Of a DNA stretch of 64,000 bases, positions 1,987 to 12,496 are shown one piece after another. Position 1 is the stretch's first letter; every line of letters starts with the position of its first letter. Location of the stretch: positions 25,765 to 89,764 of the forward strand of contig JAPLLV010000056.1 in NCBI GenBank assembly GCA_026387405.1. The letters run 5' to 3'. The notes beneath the pieces were generated by a model that was not told the DNA's origin, searched no databases, and saw nothing but the letters and a program-made list of their open reading frames with translations. Source of the DNA: Candidatus Omnitrophota bacterium (GTDB lineage: Bacteria; Omnitrophota; Gorgyraeia; Gygaellales; Profunditerraquicolaceae). Position numbers and translations under genes: made by a program.

Positions 1987-3840
1987 ATGGCTAAGCAGAA
2001 CGGTAAAAAAATTACAAAATCTAATTTTCTAAAGCGCTTCCCTGTCGGGTGGCTGCTATTACTTTTGCTGTTTTATTTGTTCCTGGGGTCATTATCTACA
2101 TCCGGCACGCAGCAAGAGTTAAAATACAGCGATTTCTACGGCATCCTGAAGAACAACCCCGAAAAGATAAAATCTGTCACTAAGATAGACAGTAAATTGC
2201 AGGGGGAAATGACCGACAATAGCAAGTTTTATGTGTATATCCCCGACAACGACCAACAGCTGCTTATTCTCATTCAGCAAAACCTCAAGAATTTTAACGT
2301 CAAGCCCCCGTCATTTTGGGGGAGTCTGATCTTTCAACTAAGCGGGGTCATCCTGTTTATTGTGTTCTGGTGGCTGATGATGAACCGCGGTGAGCAACTA
2401 GGCAACCGCATCATGACCTTCGGCAAAGTCAAGACCAAACTCAACAGCGAAAAGGAATCGGAAAAGGCAACCTTCAACGACGTAGCCGGGGTGGATGAAG
2501 CCAAGGAAGAACTAAAAGAGGTCATCGAGTTCCTGAAGGACCCCAAGAAATTCCAGAGGTTAGGCGGCAAGATCCCTAAAGGCGTCCTCTTGGTGGGCCC
2601 GCCCGGATGCGGAAAGACCCTTATTGCCCGGGCAGTTGCCGGAGAGGCAGATGTGCCTTTTTTCAATATCTCGGGTTCGGACTTCGTAGAGATGTTCGTA
2701 GGCGTGGGCGCAAGCCGCGTACGCGACCTTTTTGAGCAGGGCAGGCGCGCTGCAAAAACCTCCGGTAAAGGAGCCATTATATTTATAGATGAAATAGACG
2801 CGGTGGGGCGGCTGCGTTTCTCAGGCATAGGGGGCGGGCACGATGAACGGGAACAGACCTTAAACCAGCTTCTAGTGGAAATGGACGGTTTTGATGCCGC
2901 GCAGGGATTGATCCTTATAGCCGCTACTAACCGGCCGGATACCCTGGACCCGGCACTGTTGCGGCCGGGGAGATTTGACCGGCATATCGTGGTTAACCTC
3001 CCTGATATCCTGGGAAGAGAAGAGATCCTAAGGGTGCATACCCGCAAATTAAAGCTTGCCGGGAACGTAGACCTTAAATCCCTGGCCTCGCAGACTCCGG
3101 GTTTTTCCGGGGCAGACCTGGCCAATCTCTGCAACGAAGCGGCGCTTTTGGCTGCCCGGAACAATAAAGACTCGATTGAACAGATTGATTTTGAAAAATC
3201 CGTGGAGCGCGTGCTTATGGGCCCGGAAAAGAAAAGCCACATCATGTCTAAGAAGGAAAAGGAGATCACGGCGCTGCATGAATCCGGACACTCCCTATTG
3301 TCGCTCCTCTTGCCGGATGTAAACCCGCTAAAGAAGGTTTCAATTATTCCCCGCGGGCTTGCCGGGGGATACACATTTACTCCTCCGGTGGAAGACCGCC
3401 ACTACTGGACCAAAAGCCAGCTGATCTCCGAGATTACCATGATGTTGGGCGGCCGGGCTTCCGAAGAAATAAACCTCAATGAAGTTACCACCGGCGCGCA
3501 GAATGACCTGGAAATGGCCACCGGCATGGCCCGGCGCATGGTCATGCAGTTCGGCATGTCTGAAAAACTGGGCCACATCACCCTGGGAAAAAGAGAGGGG
3601 CTGCTCTTCCTGGGCCGTGATATCATGGAAGAAAAGAATTATAGCGAAGAAACCGCCAGGGTTATTGATGAAGAGGTAAAAAATATAGTTGATACCGCCT
3701 ATCAAAGCGCTAAAACAATACTATCTCAGAATCTAGATAAGCTAAAGCTGCTCTCCAACGCGCTTTTGGAAAAAGAGGTCCTTGACGGCGAAGAAGCCAA
3801 GCGCATTATTGGGATAGAGAAGAAGGATGTTGTGATTTAG
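1987..3840 (+). CDS. ftsH: ATP-dependent zinc metalloprotease FtsH
   Basis: N-terminal TM segments, Walker [12 protein letters not shown] second region of homology, HESGH zinc motif; 617 aa. Confidence 0.95.
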
Positions 3841-5055
3841 ATGATCCGGGTCCTGGAAATCTCCAATCAAGCAGAATTAAGCGGGATTTTGCGGGAGATC
3901 GGGGTCGATCCTTATGGCATAGGTATCATGCGCCTGAAAGGAATGACGCGCCTTATCCATATCAAAGCCCTATCCAATATAACCGCAAATATCCTTAAGC
4001 AAGAAATGCTCGCCCTCGGCGCAGATGCCGCAATTGCCCGCGGCTCATTGACCGGTAAAACCAAAAGAACCGGCTGTTTGCTGATGGCCAATGATGCGCA
4101 GCTGAACCGGCTAAATGCCAAACTCAAAAATCAACCCTTTGGGCTTGGGGATATCGGGAACCGGATACGAAATGCGCTTCTGAACTACGAAAAAGATAAT
4201 TTTCTAATAGATATCGGAAGGTATAAACTGGACCTGAGCAAGTCTACCCGCGTCATGGGAGTGGTAAATCTTACGCCGGACTCTTTTAGCGGTGACGGCC
4301 TTTATACGCCATATGCCATACGCCATATGCCATACGCCGATAGAATTGTGGAATTTGCGCAAAAATTGGTAGAAGATGGGGCTGATATAATTGACGTGGG
4401 AGGTGAATCTTCCCGCCCCGGAGCCAAACCTATATCAATAAAAGAAGAGTGTTCTCGGGTTATGCCGGCGATCAAGGTTATAGCTAAAAAAATAAAGATC
4501 CCTATCTCCATAGACACCTACAAACCCGAAGTTGCCGGGCGCGCGCTTCTAAATGGCGCGGGTTTAGTAAATGATATCTCGGGTTTAAGAGATCCGGCTA
4601 TGGTTAAAGTGGTTGCCCGCTATAAAGCGGCGGTGGTGATCATGCATATGAAAGGCAAACCCTCTAATATGCAGAAAAAACCTGTTTATGAATCCCTGAT
4701 TTTTGAGATCATGGAATTCCTGGAAAATGCGATAGCCAATGCCGTATCGTGCGGCATAACCAGGGATAAGATCATTGTCGATCCGGGGATCGGCTTTGGG
4801 AAAACCCTAAGAGATAACCTGGAAATATTAAAGAACCTGCAAAGCCTTAAGACCCTGGGCAGGCCCATATTGGTCGGGCCGTCCAGAAAATCCTTTATCG
4901 GTAAAATATTGCGCAGCGGGCCTCAAGATAGGATGCCGGGCACGTTATCTGCCTGCGTATTGGCGGCTAAAAACGGTGCCAGGATCCTGCGGGCGCACGA
5001 TGTAAAAGAAGTAAAGCAGGCATTAAAGATCCTGGACGCGGTATCTGGAGCCTAA
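3841..5055 (+). CDS. folP: Dihydropteroate synthase with a roughly 120-aa N-terminal extension domain
   Basis: Pterin-binding motifs (VMGVVNLTPDSFSGDG, DIIDVGGESSRPGA, SIDTYKPEVA, VNDISG, IVDPGIGFGKT); the ftsH-folP synteny matches E. coli. Confidence 0.9.
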   Translation: MIRVLEISNQAELSGILREIGVDPYGIGIMRLKGMTRLIHIKALSNITANILKQEMLALGADAAIARGSLTGKTKRTGCLLMANDAQLNRLNAKLKNQPFGLGDIGNRIRNALLNYEKDNFLIDIGRYKLDLSKSTRVMGVVNLTPDSFSGDGLYTPYAIRHMPYADRIVEFAQKLVEDGADIIDVGGESSRPGAKPISIKEECSRVMPAIKVIAKKIKIPISIDTYKPEVAGRALLNGAGLVNDISGLRDPAMVKVVARYKAAVVIMHMKGKPSNMQKKPVYESLIFEIMEFLENAIANAVSCGITRDKIIVDPGIGFGKTLRDNLEILKNLQSLKTLGRPILVGPSRKSFIGKILRSGPQDRMPGTLSACVLAAKNGARILRAHDVKEVKQALKILDAVSGA

Positions 5056-8052: not shown

Positions 8053-8128
8053 GCCGGCGTAGCTCAGTCGGTAGAGCGTCTGTTTTGTAAACAGATGGTC
8101 GGGGGTTCGATTCCTCTCGCCGGCTCCA
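8053..8128 (+). tRNA. tRNA-Thr (anticodon UGU)
   Basis: Hand-folded cloverleaf: acceptor gccggcg/cgccggc, D-arm gctc-agtcggta-gagc, anticodon stem tctgt/acaga with loop tttgtaa, T-loop ttcgatt, 3' CCA encoded. Confidence 0.85.
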
Positions 8129-8138
8129 CTAAAAAAGA

Positions 8139-8804
8139 ATGATTTCAGTAAATCAACAAACGATTAAAAATTTATATTGGGAAAAGGGCTATACTGTGCC
8201 GGATATCGCGAAACGGATTAATATTTCTTCATGGGCACTTTATAATTTTATGGATAGACATAAGATTGGACGGCGCGATCGTTCACAGACAAGCTTTCTT
8301 TTGAGCCGTAATAAACCCCGGTTTATAATAAACAACACTCTTACAGCTTCGCAGGAAAAGCTAAAGATTGCAGGAGTAATGTTATACTGGGCAGAGGGCA
8401 CTTTATTGCATAACACTGTGGATTTTACTAATTCCAATTCAAATATGGTTAGGTTGTTCTTGAAATTCTTAAGGGAAATTTGTGGAATAAGCGAAAAGAG
8501 ATTACGTGTTTATCTTTATTGTTATTCCTATCAGAAGGTAGAAGACCTATTGAACTACTGGCACAAAGTTACGGGAATTCCGTTATCTCAATTTACAAAA
8601 CCATACATAAGAGAAGGAAACATTAATTCTAGCTTAAGAAAATTACCATACGGATTAATTCATGTAAGGTATAATGATAAACAATTGCTTGAGATAATCA
8701 AACAATGGATTGATGAGTATATAGTTTGGACAGGTACCCAAGTGGCCAAAGGGGGCAGACTGTGTAAACGCAGCGTCTTGCCGAAAGGCAGGATGGAAAA
8801 GTAG
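8139..8804 (+). CDS. LAGLIDADG-like homing endonuclease candidate with an N-terminal HTH. It is free-standing and lies immediately upstream of the intron-containing tRNA-Tyr. The 3' end of the ORF reads through the tRNA-Tyr 5' exon
   Basis: IAGVMLYWAEGT resembles the LAGLIDADG/AEG dodecapeptide, followed by a block (NMVRLFLKFLREICGISEKRLRVYLY) typical of single-motif LAGLIDADG enzymes. Location between tRNA genes next to a group I intron. Confidence 0.45.
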   Translation: MISVNQQTIKNLYWEKGYTVPDIAKRINISSWALYNFMDRHKIGRRDRSQTSFLLSRNKPRFIINNTLTASQEKLKIAGVMLYWAEGTLLHNTVDFTNSNSNMVRLFLKFLREICGISEKRLRVYLYCYSYQKVEDLLNYWHKVTGIPLSQFTKPYIREGNINSSLRKLPYGLIHVRYNDKQLLEIIKQWIDEYIVWTGTQVAKGGRLCKRSVLPKGRMEK

Positions 8805-9014
8805 GTGAATTCAGGGGAGCCCCAAGAAACACTTGGGGGAATCCTGAGCCAAGCCCGCCAACTTTTTTCCGGCGGGAAGGTGCAGAGACTAAGCGCCTAC
8901 CACCTAAAACTTTAAAAAGTAACGGTGATGAGATAGTCCAAGCCTTGAGGTAACTCGAGGGCACTTGAAATCTGCTGCACTTGTGCTTCAGAGGTTCGAA
9001 TCCTCTCCTGTCCA
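8728..9014 (+). tRNA. tRNA-Tyr (anticodon GUA) interrupted in the anticodon loop by a 204-nt group I intron. Exon 1 is 8728-8763, exon 2 is 8968-9014
   Basis: Exon 1 ggacagg-ta-ccc-aagtggccaaa-ggg-g-gcaga-ctgt and exon 2 aaa-tctgc-tgcacttgtgcttc (long variable arm)-agagg-ttcgaat-cctct-cctgtcc-a. The spliced product is nearly colinear with E. coli tRNA-Tyr (CCCGAGCGGCCAAAGGGAGCAGACUGUAAAUCUGC). The spurious antisense ORF MDRRGFEPL is the classic tRNA reverse-complement signature. Confidence 0.8.
8764..8967 (+). ncRNA. Group I intron (204 nt) in tRNA-Tyr
   Basis: 5' exon ends with U (cugu|), paired to the internal guide gcag just inside the intron (P1 with a U.G wobble). The intron ends with G (cacttg|). 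The R-like element gtgcagagactaag (8881-8894) and S-like element gagatagtcc (8930-8939) form P7 (gacta/tagtc). Further hairpins at ccccaag-aaaca-cttgggg and cccgcc...ggcggg. Confidence 0.75.
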
Positions 9015-9037: not shown

Positions 9038-9658
9038 ATGGAAAATATAATAAAAACAGACCGAGATGCTTCTCTTTTTATCGATTTAGCAGATAAAGAT
9101 TATTTAGCAGTCAGGTTACTTTTTGGTTGTGGTAACTGTTTTTATAATTTAGCCGCCTACCATTCTCAGCAATGCTTGGAAAAATATCTAAAAGCATTTC
9201 TTGTTCAGAAAACCAGCACTTATCTCAAAACACATAATTTGAAAGAATTAAGGGAGATGGCCGAAGCTCATAATAGCTATTTCTCTAAAGACGAGGTAAA
9301 AAAAGCTTTGGCTGAGTTTGATAAATATGACCAAGTTACCCGTTATAGCGCAGAGGCCACTTACGACCCAAATTCACAGAAAAATAAGTGCTTTGAGATT
9401 AAAGGGGTGTGGAGCTTCGGTCTTGGGTTTGGCAATATTAGAACTTTAGATAAGCTTGTTTACGAAATAAGGAGTTTAATGGACTTCGATAAATTAAAGG
9501 GAAGAAACAATCTAAAAGACATATTTAAGGAAGAGAAAAACAATTCATTTATCATGTGTTGGAAATTACCGATTCCGATAAAAAGAGTATTAACTATAGA
9601 AAATGATTATTGGGGGGGCAGGTTAGATATAAAAGTTGAGTTTGTAGAAGTCAGTTAA
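9038..9658 (+). CDS. HEPN domain protein (putative RNase / toxin-like) with an Rx5H motif
   Basis: AAYHSQQCLEKYLKAFL helix and LREMAEAHNSY (R-x5-H) characteristic of HEPN. The first 19 codons of the tracked ORF overlap the tRNA-Tyr 3' exon, so the start at 9038 is preferred. Confidence 0.55.
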   Translation: MENIIKTDRDASLFIDLADKDYLAVRLLFGCGNCFYNLAAYHSQQCLEKYLKAFLVQKTSTYLKTHNLKELREMAEAHNSYFSKDEVKKALAEFDKYDQVTRYSAEATYDPNSQKNKCFEIKGVWSFGLGFGNIRTLDKLVYEIRSLMDFDKLKGRNNLKDIFKEEKNNSFIMCWKLPIPIKRVLTIENDYWGGRLDIKVEFVEVS

Positions 9659-9726: not shown

Positions 9727-9981
9727 ATGACCTGCGGACTAGGCATAAGCTGGATAGCATTATTGATCATTCTCGCGGCAGCATTAGTAATTTCTCTTTT
9801 TATTTTCTGGCTTTCCATGCTCATTGATTGCTGCAAAAGGAATTTCAACAACGGGATAGAGCGGCTTATCTGGCTCTTGATCATAATACTGGGTAATTTA
9901 TTGGGCGTCACTATATACTATTTCCTGATCGTCAGATACCATCCTGACGGGATAGCGGATAAGGAAGGCCGATTAAAATAG
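9727..9981 (+). CDS. Small membrane protein with a PLD-nuclease N-terminal (PLDc_N) domain
   Basis: Two TM helices with LIWLLIIILGNLLGVTIYYFL, typical of PLDc_N / YxlE-like proteins. Confidence 0.6.
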   Translation: MTCGLGISWIALLIILAAALVISLFIFWLSMLIDCCKRNFNNGIERLIWLLIIILGNLLGVTIYYFLIVRYHPDGIADKEGRLK

Positions 9982-9984
9982 TTT

Positions 9985-10058
9985 GCGAGCGTAGTTCAAT
10001 GGTAGAACAATAGCCTTCCAAGCTATATATGTCGGTTCGATTCCGATCGCTCGCTCCA
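9985..10058 (+). tRNA. tRNA-Gly (anticodon UCC)
   Basis: Acceptor gcgagcg/cgctcgc, anticodon stem atagc/gctat with loop cttccaa, T-arm gtcgg-ttcgatt-ccgat, CCA encoded. Confidence 0.85.
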
Positions 10059-10066
10059 AAAAAAAT

Positions 10067-10831
10067 ATGGAACGTGAATTTTTAGAACCTGTTTTTATCG
10101 AAGCCTTTGACCTGGATGACGCGTGGTTCCAGTGCCTCTCCAGGATACTGGATAGCGGCCATATCTATACCATCACCCGCGGCAGCTATGAGGGGCAGAA
10201 ACGCCTGGAGTTCGATTTTGTTACGATCAGAGTAAAAAAACCGGCACACCAGATTATCCCGATCATCCCCGAGGGGATGAGTATCCCCGCCCCGACAGAT
10301 ATGGACTATATCCAGGGTTATCTTAGTTATCTCATGACCGGGACCAAAACAGAGACCGAAGATTATACCTACGGAGAACGGCTGGTCGAGCCGCGGGTAA
10401 GGATAAAAGAAAATAAGGACGGCAAAGAGATGGTCCGGGAGATGCCTATCGGGGGTAACCAGATAGAAGCGGTAATAGACATGTACCGGAAAAAAGGCTT
10501 TGGCACCAATCAGGCAATAATGGAGATCGGCATGCCTTCCGACATCAACCTCGATGACCCTCCGTGCCTGCGGCTTATAGATACCAGGGTGCGCTACGGT
10601 AAGCTCCACTTTATCCTTTATTTCCGTTCCTGGGACCTCTGGGGCGGTTTCCCCTCTAACCTCGGAGGGCTGGAATTAGTCAAACAATACATGGCCGAGG
10701 AGATCGGGGTCAAGGACGGAGAAATAATCGCGGTGAGCAAGGGCTTGCACCTCTATGATTATAGCTGGGAACTGGCAAAGATGAGGACCAATAAGTCCTC
10801 TCCCCGGGCATTGGTTAATTTATCCACTTAA
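10067..10831 (+). CDS. thyA: Thymidylate synthase (ThyA superfamily), divergent
   Basis: Catalytic PPC(L) motif in DPPCLRLID and the R-S-x-D motif in ILYFRSWDLWGGFPSN. Length of 254 aa and N-terminal region are colinear with ThyA. Confidence 0.6.
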   Translation: MEREFLEPVFIEAFDLDDAWFQCLSRILDSGHIYTITRGSYEGQKRLEFDFVTIRVKKPAHQIIPIIPEGMSIPAPTDMDYIQGYLSYLMTGTKTETEDYTYGERLVEPRVRIKENKDGKEMVREMPIGGNQIEAVIDMYRKKGFGTNQAIMEIGMPSDINLDDPPCLRLIDTRVRYGKLHFILYFRSWDLWGGFPSNLGGLELVKQYMAEEIGVKDGEIIAVSKGLHLYDYSWELAKMRTNKSSPRALVNLST

Positions 10832-12421: not shown

Positions 12422-12496
12422 CGGGGGATGGCGCAGTTTGGCTAGCGCGCTTGAATGGGGTTCAAGAGGCCGAGAGTTCAAGTCTCTCTCCCCCGA
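12422..12496 (+). tRNA. tRNA-Pro (anticodon GGG)
   Basis: Acceptor cggggga/tcccccg, anticodon stem cttga/tcaag with loop atggggt (G37), T-arm gagag-ttcaagt-ctctc. Confidence 0.75.

Follow-up and report, generated by a model that had tools for sequence, protein, structure and literature searches.

The window analysed here, a 64,000-nucleotide (nt) stretch of contig JAPLLV010000056.1 from a Candidatus Omnitrophota bacterium, contains a tRNA-Tyr(GUA) gene that is split by a group I intron and directly preceded by an open reading frame (ORF). The tRNA-Thr(UGU) gene at 8053-8128, called by ARAGORN and matched by the Rfam tRNA model with 71.7 bits, is the first gene of a cluster of the thrU-tyrU-glyT type. 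The ORF (8139-8804; 221 amino acids (aa)) starts 10 nt past tRNA-Thr and is annotated by NCBI as hypothetical protein NTU54_06005 of a Candidatus Omnitrophica metagenome-assembled genome (MAG). It reads through exon 1 of tRNA-Tyr and ends with the stop codon TAG at 8802-8804, within the 5' strand of intron helix P3. Exon 1 (8728-8763) carries tRNA positions 1-35, and exon 2 (8968-9014) carries positions 36-76 with the long variable arm. The intron between them (8764-8967) is 204 nt long, contains no ORF of its own and sits at anticodon position 35/36. All these features lie on the forward (+) strand, and all coordinates refer to the window.

With introns allowed, ARAGORN called a tRNA-Tyr(gta) whose 204-nt intron begins at 8764, and the joined exons folded into a class II tRNA-Tyr with a GUA anticodon. 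The joined exons matched the annotated tRNA-Tyr in 5426 of 5426 complete Escherichia coli genomes, with 80.8% identity over 88% of the length. The extent of exon 1 was supported by this comparison and by an alignment of homologues. The gene was missed by ARAGORN in its default mode and by the Rfam tRNA model. It occupies the canonical position of the Thr-Tyr-Gly cluster, and no second tRNA-Tyr was found within the 64-kb window. Substitutions in the tRNA-Tyr stems were found to be paired between homologous loci, which speaks for a functional gene and against a pseudogene.

The intron was matched by the Rfam model Intron_gpI (RF00028) with 82.1 bits (E 2.5e-19; gathering score 50). The Rfam alignment started at 8694 and misplaced P1 and P2 upstream, in the ORF. 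The Rfam placement of the helices was replaced by a model based on RNAalifold and covariation, to which P7 was added by hand. Exon 1 ends in CUGU and exon 2 starts with AAAUCUG, so the insertion falls between anticodon nucleotides 35 and 36. The internal guide GCAG (8770-8773) pairs with the exon CUGU (8760-8763) to form P1, with a U.G pair at the 5' splice site, in 32 of 32 aligned copies of the intron. P2 is a hairpin of 9 base pairs with a GAAA loop (8774-8782 / 8787-8795) and shows compensatory changes in eight of its nine pairs; P3 (8801-8807 / 8894-8900) shows double changes in three of seven. The P4-P5-P6-P6a domain spans 8811-8881. In it RNAalifold placed P4 (8811-8816 / 8842-8847), P5 (8820-8826 / 8832-8838), P6 (8848-8850 / 8879-8881) and P6a (8854-8860 / 8870-8876), and in the exons the anticodon stem (8756-8759 / 8971-8974). 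The guanosine-binding helix P7 pairs GACUA (8887-8891) with UAGUC (8934-8938) and was invariant in 32/32 copies, as was the terminal guanosine (omega G) at 8967. Covariation was seen in three of the four pairs of the P8 hairpin (8901-8927; pairs 8901-8904 / 8924-8927) and in five of the seven pairs of the P9 hairpin (8943-8960; pairs 8943-8949 / 8954-8960). The guide, P1 to P3, the P4-P6a domain, P7 to P9 and omega G are all on the forward strand. No canonical P10 was found, as the guide region has no complementarity to AAAU; presumably the anticodon stem aligns the 3' exon, as in other tRNA introns.

Using a profile of the upstream ORF, we recovered 80 loci from species-representative genomes (loci are cited by number below). 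In addition, metagenomes were scanned with the 16-mer 3' junction GGRCACTTGAAATCTG, which gave 120 listed stretches and is not a census of frequencies. A group I intron inside tRNA-Tyr was detected with Rfam in 37 genome loci, mostly from Omnitrophota MAGs, at 45.6-113 bits, with one homologue (L039, 45.6 bits) below the gathering score of 50. At least 20 further true intron loci were present among the 120 listed metagenome stretches, the other stretches being chance matches. The same intron was found at the same site in at least 50 other loci, mostly of Omnitrophota. For the alignment 32 cleanly delimited copies were used, and their junctions were identical in 32/32. Exon 1 ended in AGACUGU, the intron began with 4-9 A-rich nt followed by GCAGC and ended in uG (cacuuG in most copies), and exon 2 began with AAAUCUG. 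The P1, P7 and terminal-G features were invariant throughout.

Compensatory double changes were found in 32 of the 63 base pairs of this 32-sequence alignment. Paired alignment cells made up 97.8% as compared to 86.0% after shuffling, and 257 double-change cells were observed as compared to 71; none of the 500 shuffles reached the observed values. In controls with slid partners, pairing fell to 32-48%. Double changes were present in P2, P3, P5, P6, P6a, P8 and P9, whereas P1 and P7 are invariant and P4 changes on one strand only, so that these three helices give no covariation evidence. The split tRNA-Tyr and its intron are real, far beyond chance.

These results bear out most of what an earlier note on this DNA, made by a model from the sequence alone, had proposed for the tRNA. 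It had assembled a class II tRNA-Tyr, nearly colinear with that of E. coli, from the same two exons, had described a 204-nt group I intron with a U.G pair to an internal guide gcag, a terminal G and P7, and had placed the insertion after nt 35 of the anticodon loop. ARAGORN, the E. coli comparison, the Intron_gpI match, the 32 homologues and the CUGU/AAA junction agree with it on each of these points. They also agree that the intron is ORF-less and that the ORF at 8139-8804 is wedged in after tRNA-Thr and reads through exon 1. A chance origin, which the note had considered for the P7 matches, is excluded for the group I features by the Rfam and covariation support. The intron-minus alleles that it had suggested looking for in related loci exist, as an intron-less tRNA-Tyr stands in about 30 ORF-bearing loci.

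Some copies carried additional elements. An insertion of about 35 nt between P7 and P3', in the place of P7.1/P7.2 of IA introns, was present in 3/32 (L012, L016, L018; A5 columns 206-241), and an extension of about 49 nt after P9 in 5/32 (L004, L005, L006, L010, L019; A5 columns 342-390). Because only some copies have these insertions and extensions, we regard the introns as one family with modular peripheral variants. The anticodon stem was CAGA/UCUG in 32/32 intron-bearing alleles and very diverse in the ORF-adjacent intron-less alleles (L027-L068). Common descent could explain this uniform stem, or the intron may require this exon context. One MAG (JAZDFW01) held two full units of tRNA-Thr, ORF and intron-bearing tRNA-Tyr on different contigs (L002 and L020), which may represent a strain mixture or a duplication.

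The conserved part of the protein encoded by the ORF ends at about 8726, and the final 25 codons read tRNA exon 1 and the beginning of the intron. The N terminus forms a helix-turn-helix (HTH) module (aa 6-50; 8154-8288, +), as indicated by HTH hits in the family, by PHROGs and by the AlphaFold2 (AF2) helices at 6-57. N termini in the family match HTH_7, HTH_23 and HTH_38. The N terminus also matches the DNA-binding part of the phage 'HNH endonuclease' PHROGs 8446 (E 5e-7) and 7545 (E 2.5e-6), and PHROGs cover only the HTH part even in phage members of the family. The remainder is an alpha/beta domain with a LAGLIDADG-like appearance (aa 66-196; 8334-8726, +), which contains the invariant motif LYWAEG (8382-8399, +). 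No variation was seen in residues E86-G87 of this motif among 113 close and 57 diverse relatives, or in Y83 among the 57 diverse ones.

Against Pfam and NCBIfam the window ORF gave weak HTH hits only and no LAGLIDADG profile. Among 34 C-terminal domains of the family, 3 matched Pfam LAGLIDADG_3 below its threshold (best 16.3 bits vs a cut-off of 22.5, E 0.012), and the best match spans exactly the LYWAEG helix, the next strand and the next helix. Sequence searches of PDB with the single protein and two profiles returned HTH matches only. Comparison of the family with a manually entered I-CreI sequence in hhalign gave a probability of 0.1. Foldseek against PDB returned nothing at E<=0.001, the top matches being YfiB/OmpA-like with a template-modelling (TM) score of about 0.3.

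The domain resembles LAGLIDADG enzymes (I-DmoI, I-CreI, I-Tsp061I) and WhiA in a helix that ends in an invariant acid plus Gly and leads into a beta strand, and it shares with WhiA an attached HTH module. It differs from LAGLIDADG enzymes in that no model matches at threshold, and in LYWAEG the acid stands two residues farther from the small-residue pair. Furthermore, its first beta hairpin is very short and an extra helix lies between strands 3 and 4. Compared with WhiA, which has two domains and a C-terminal HTH, the ORF has a single domain and an N-terminal HTH. We regard 'LAGLIDADG-like' as a reasonable assignment, unproven but somewhat favoured. Thus, where the earlier note had seen a putative LAGLIDADG/HTH protein, the HTH part stands on the family hits and the LAGLIDADG part falls short at the Pfam threshold.

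A total of 614 homologues of the window ORF was collected, and the family comprises 5552 clusters at 50% identity with E<=1e-3, or 1998 with E<=1e-10. In 73/80 genome loci the ORF stop falls within a range from 23 nt ahead of a same-strand tRNA gene to 108 nt into it. This tRNA is an intron-bearing tRNA-Tyr in the 37 loci supported by Rfam and in one more found by ARAGORN only (L036). In about 30 loci, mostly of Patescibacteria and including L027 and L031, it is a tRNA-Tyr without an intron. The most distant members adjoin tRNA-Trp, Arg(UCU), Lys, Val, Gly(GCC) or Gln. In Chloroflexota, a subfamily of 1861 proteins keeps the conserved order argS-dcd-ORF-tRNA-Val(UAC), and in one Falkowbacteria MAG paralogues lie beside tRNA-Tyr and tRNA-Arg (L044, L076). 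Beside tRNA-Tyr the ORF fills the spacer, starting 0-19 nt past tRNA-Thr and ending flush with or overlapping tRNA-Tyr. A tail of translated tRNA was present on most of 112 homologous protein clusters. We considered this run-on as a selected feature and rejected it, as it uses three frames and several stop positions, with the commonest stop on a covarying P3 base; the run-on is probably incidental.

Endonuclease genes have been described within phage tRNA clusters (PMC13096335). Relatives of the ORF on IMG/VR viral contigs were inside tRNA arrays in 20/21 cases, in either orientation, and two paralogues (L206 and L209) were found on one viral contig of 446 kb. On another contig (L221; IMGVR_UViG_3300018080_004888, 84.5 kb) a relative occupies 2453-2962, and the tRNA-Met(CAU) after it contains a group I intron of 199 nt (65 bits with Rfam), relative and tRNA together spanning 2453-3249. 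A second group I intron (67 bits) lies 1 kb downstream at 3994-4181. According to a 2014 review the phage introns then known were all in protein-coding genes (PMC3984707), and a tRNA intron as in L221 would stand out, provided that the contig really is viral. A putative jumbo-phage contig with an array of 23 tRNAs (L203; IMGVR_UViG_3300017987_000005, 184 kb) had a match to bacterial RNase P RNA class A between tRNA genes at 966-1165. The match covers the whole model in 200 nt and, with 61 bits, is below the threshold of 100 (E 1.8e-16).

We then compared the occurrence of the ORF and of the intron. In the Omnitrophota-like set (L001-L032) the intron was present in 30/32 ORF-bearing loci. Of the metagenomic intron loci, 16 extended far enough upstream; in these the ORF was intact in 10 and decayed in 1. 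Five metagenomic intron loci had no ORF and a tRNA-Thr/tRNA-Tyr spacer of 12-51 nt (L091, L099, L109, L123, L185), the spacers of L123 and L185 being empty at the ORF site, and L079 had an ORF remnant only. Introns with 92.6-95.5% identity were found beside an intact (L003), an internally deleted (L145) and an absent ORF (L170). At a conserved site the ORF is thus present, absent or decayed, as is expected of a mobile gene. The ORF goes with tRNA genes, independently of the intron. Comparison of the anticodon stems of intron-less and intron-bearing alleles did not discriminate the target of the enzyme. Upstream of the ORF-less, intron-bearing tRNA-Tyr of L170 (1-128) we observed a chimeric tRNA-like sequence that ARAGORN did not call. 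In its 5' part it resembles a CCU-anticodon tRNA, and in its 3' part it matches the tRNA-Thr that related loci have here (L185). Recombination may have left it as a scar, or it may be an artefact of assembly.

Taken together, we find it likely that two separate, selfish genetic elements share this tRNA locus, a self-splicing intron and a free-standing homing endonuclease gene. After transcription the intron would fold into P1-P9, with the guide GCAG paired to loop nucleotides C32-U35, and the anticodon stem would keep both exons together during splicing. The folded intron would then excise itself with guanosine, which would restore a normal class II tRNA-Tyr. The ORF most likely encodes a free-standing homing endonuclease that would insert into tRNA-gene spacers and be transcribed with the tRNA operon, and its run-on into exon 1 and the intron would be accidental, as it lacks its own stop codon. 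A homing endonuclease gene aimed at tRNA-gene spacers would be expected to show the pattern seen here, with copies that are intact, decayed or missing, paralogues beside different tRNAs, and members in phages. As the ORF fills the Thr-Tyr spacer, it may have inserted at its own cleavage site and be expressed from the tRNA-operon transcript. The family is probably a mobile DNA-cutting enzyme.

Several points weigh against this interpretation. Self-splicing in vivo is deduced from sequence features, as are the nuclease activity, target site and mobility proposed for the ORF. No target site of the ORF was identified. Nor is co-transcription universal, as the ORF runs antisense to the tRNAs in some phage arrays. 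The synteny, with tRNA-Tyr in two phyla and with tRNA-Val in Chloroflexota, has been conserved for long; this and the identity of 55-65% could instead indicate a domesticated host gene.

Such domestication is the main alternative for the ORF, which would then be a WhiA-like, non-catalytic protein with an HTH and a degenerate LAGLIDADG domain that regulates the tRNA operon and is inherited vertically. We consider this unlikely, even though the synteny is conserved in Chloroflexota and Omnitrophota and the HTH is the sole confident annotation. WhiA itself is not known to have an acidic residue at the helix end, whereas E86 in this position is invariant in the ORF family. Vertical inheritance also fits poorly with the presence, decay or absence of the ORF beside introns that are 92.6-95.5% identical, with paralogues at different tRNAs in one genome, and with relatives in phage tRNA arrays in either orientation.

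A free-standing endonuclease could also be the partner of the intron. In such collaborative homing the ORF product would act in trans as the endonuclease of the intron and cut intron-less tRNA-Tyr at or near 35/36. Repair would copy the ORF and the intron, 36 base pairs (bp) apart, and the intron would shield the host allele. The 36 bp between the ORF end and the insertion site, the intron in 30/32 ORF-bearing loci of L001-L032, and the ORF intact in 10 and decayed in 1 of the 16 metagenomic intron loci are in line with this. Moreover, the DNA of the anticodon stem-loop is palindromic about the insertion site, as would suit an enzyme acting as a homodimer. The 30/32 figure, however, covers ORF-bearing loci only. 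Under collaborative homing the endonuclease gene should never occur without the intron, but about 30 ORF loci were beside an intron-less tRNA-Tyr, which would be a self-target, and at least 5 intron loci had a mere 12-51 nt spacer at the ORF site. In addition, relatives occur in phage arrays and next to Val, Arg, Lys, Gly, Gln and Trp tRNAs that have no intron. We therefore judge collaborative homing improbable, and the suggestion of the earlier note that the ORF acts with the intron was not supported in these comparisons. Cooperation of intron and ORF is possible and unproven, and the partnership is clearly not obligatory. Somewhat less doubtful, though still tentative, is the idea that the family is a very large, so far unrecognised group of tRNA-specialised homing endonucleases, with an HTH and a diverged LAGLIDADG-like domain with a single motif. 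They would home into tRNA-operon spacers of several bacterial phyla and into phage tRNA arrays, use the transcription of the tRNA operon, and in Omnitrophota also mobilise the adjacent tRNA-Tyr intron by co-conversion. If true, this would be the first cooperation of a cellular intron with a free-standing endonuclease and would explain the spread of 'endonuclease-less' tRNA introns.

Some LAGLIDADG proteins are maturases, and the ORF product might accordingly bind the intron RNA and help the tRNA-Tyr intron to fold. In favour of this, the ORF lies beside the intron and is probably transcribed together with it. However, most family members outside Omnitrophota are beside intron-less tRNAs, ORF-less intron loci persist, and small 35/36 tRNA introns splice protein-free in vitro (PMC13011429), which makes a maturase very improbable. 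Finally, a dead locus, with the tRNA halves as a pseudogene and the group I features as coincidence, found no support beyond the failure of standard tRNA finders to see the gene and is already refuted by the Rfam E value of 2.5e-19, by at least 50 homologous loci with covariation in intron and tRNA stems, and by the canonical position in the Thr-Tyr-Gly cluster.

Farther downstream the window has tRNA-Gly(UCC) at 9985-10058 and tRNA-Pro(GGG) at 12422-12496. The tRNA-Tyr/tRNA-Gly spacer, just 3-100 nt long in many related loci, here contains an ORF with a HEPN domain (9038-9658, +; Pfam HEPN, E 2.9e-14) and a small ORF (9727-9981), which are another insertion into the same tRNA operon. Between tRNA-Gly and tRNA-Pro, an ORF at 10067-10831 (+) has a weak partial match to thymidylate synthase (PF00303, E 9.6e-11; C-terminal half only). 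Two related Omnitrophota loci (L006 5043-5297, L079 4856-4970) have flavin mononucleotide (FMN) riboswitches at a distance of a few kb on the downstream side of the tRNA cluster, which appear ordinary.

The split gene has consequences for annotation. Gene callers extend a 'hypothetical protein' across the missed tRNA-Tyr, and many Omnitrophota genomes will seem to lack tRNA-Tyr, which affects inferences on completeness and decoding. The ORF is the more interesting part of the locus, as an unannotated, tRNA-associated and probably mobile gene family of bacteria and phages. It was overlooked because it lies outside the intron and matches no profile. An endonuclease-like gene just outside the intron reopens the question of tRNA-intron mobility, and the family would be a source of new long-site nucleases if it is true that it cuts DNA.

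The intron itself has published counterparts. The classical bacterial tRNA introns are those of tRNA-Leu, tRNA-fMet, tRNA-Ile and tRNA-Arg (PMC3984707; PMC8450103). Nakagawa et al. (2026, mSystems) surveyed 4934 complete genomes and reported on group I introns at 35/36 in tRNA-Asn, tRNA-Asp and tRNA-Tyr that self-splice in vitro without protein (PMC13011429). Table 1 of that survey has one tRNA-Tyr(GUA) 35/36 intron, from a member of Patescibacteria (GCA_016699995.1), and the sole Omnitrophota entry in the accessible part of its supplement is an IC3 intron at 33/34 of tRNA-fMet. The view that a tRNA-Tyr host is unusual, as the earlier note had put it, is therefore outdated; the interpretation as a tRNA-Tyr intron is correct and no longer unprecedented. 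With nhmmer the tRNA-Tyr intron profile scored 85 and 80 bits against the 35/36 introns of Nitrospirota tRNA-Asn and 44-62 bits against published IC3 tRNA introns, and by these scores the Nitrospirota introns appear to be the closest published relatives of the window intron. It is a new member of the 35/36 class, which uses the CUGU common to tRNAs with GUN anticodons (Asn, Asp, Tyr).

With the published 35/36 introns (PMC13011429) it shares the insertion site, the CUGU/GCAG logic of P1, the GUN-anticodon host, the lack of an ORF, a size of about 200-280 nt and its invisibility to standard tRNA finders. New here, though not the first of its kind, are Omnitrophota as host phylum and tRNA-Tyr as a regular host, in dozens of species, to which the class is thereby extended. 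Most tRNA-Tyr copies are also without the P7-P3' insertion, unlike the published Asn introns, the published subgroup being IA1. The survey sought endonuclease genes only inside introns, does not mention an upstream ORF, and concluded that tRNA introns mostly have no homing endonucleases and hence rarely move (PMC13011429). The classical IC3 introns (Azoarcus, Anabaena) are likewise small and ORF-less, lie in the anticodon loop with the splice site after a U, have their exons held by the anticodon stem and are similar in core sequence (44-62 bits). Their sites are 34/35 in tRNA-Leu(UAA), 33/34 in tRNA-fMet and 36/37 in tRNA-Ile and tRNA-Arg, so that the window intron differs from them in site and host tRNA, and its similarity to them is lower than to the 35/36 lineage.

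The ORF can be compared with two free-standing phage endonucleases. Collaborative homing was reportedly described by Zeng, Bonocora and Shub in 2009 for F-CphI, beside the psbA intron of cyanophage S-PM2. In both cases a group I intron without an ORF has an endonuclease-like gene immediately next to it, within the same region of the host gene. The window ORF differs in its place upstream of a tRNA, in its cellular genome and in its protein family, and this family is as frequent without the intron, so the partnership is not obligatory. SegB is a free-standing mobile endonuclease of the GIY-YIG type in the tRNA cluster of phage T4. Like SegB, the window ORF lies between tRNA genes and has relatives in phage tRNA arrays, whereas its family combines an HTH with a LAGLIDADG-like domain and is mostly bacterial and chromosomal.

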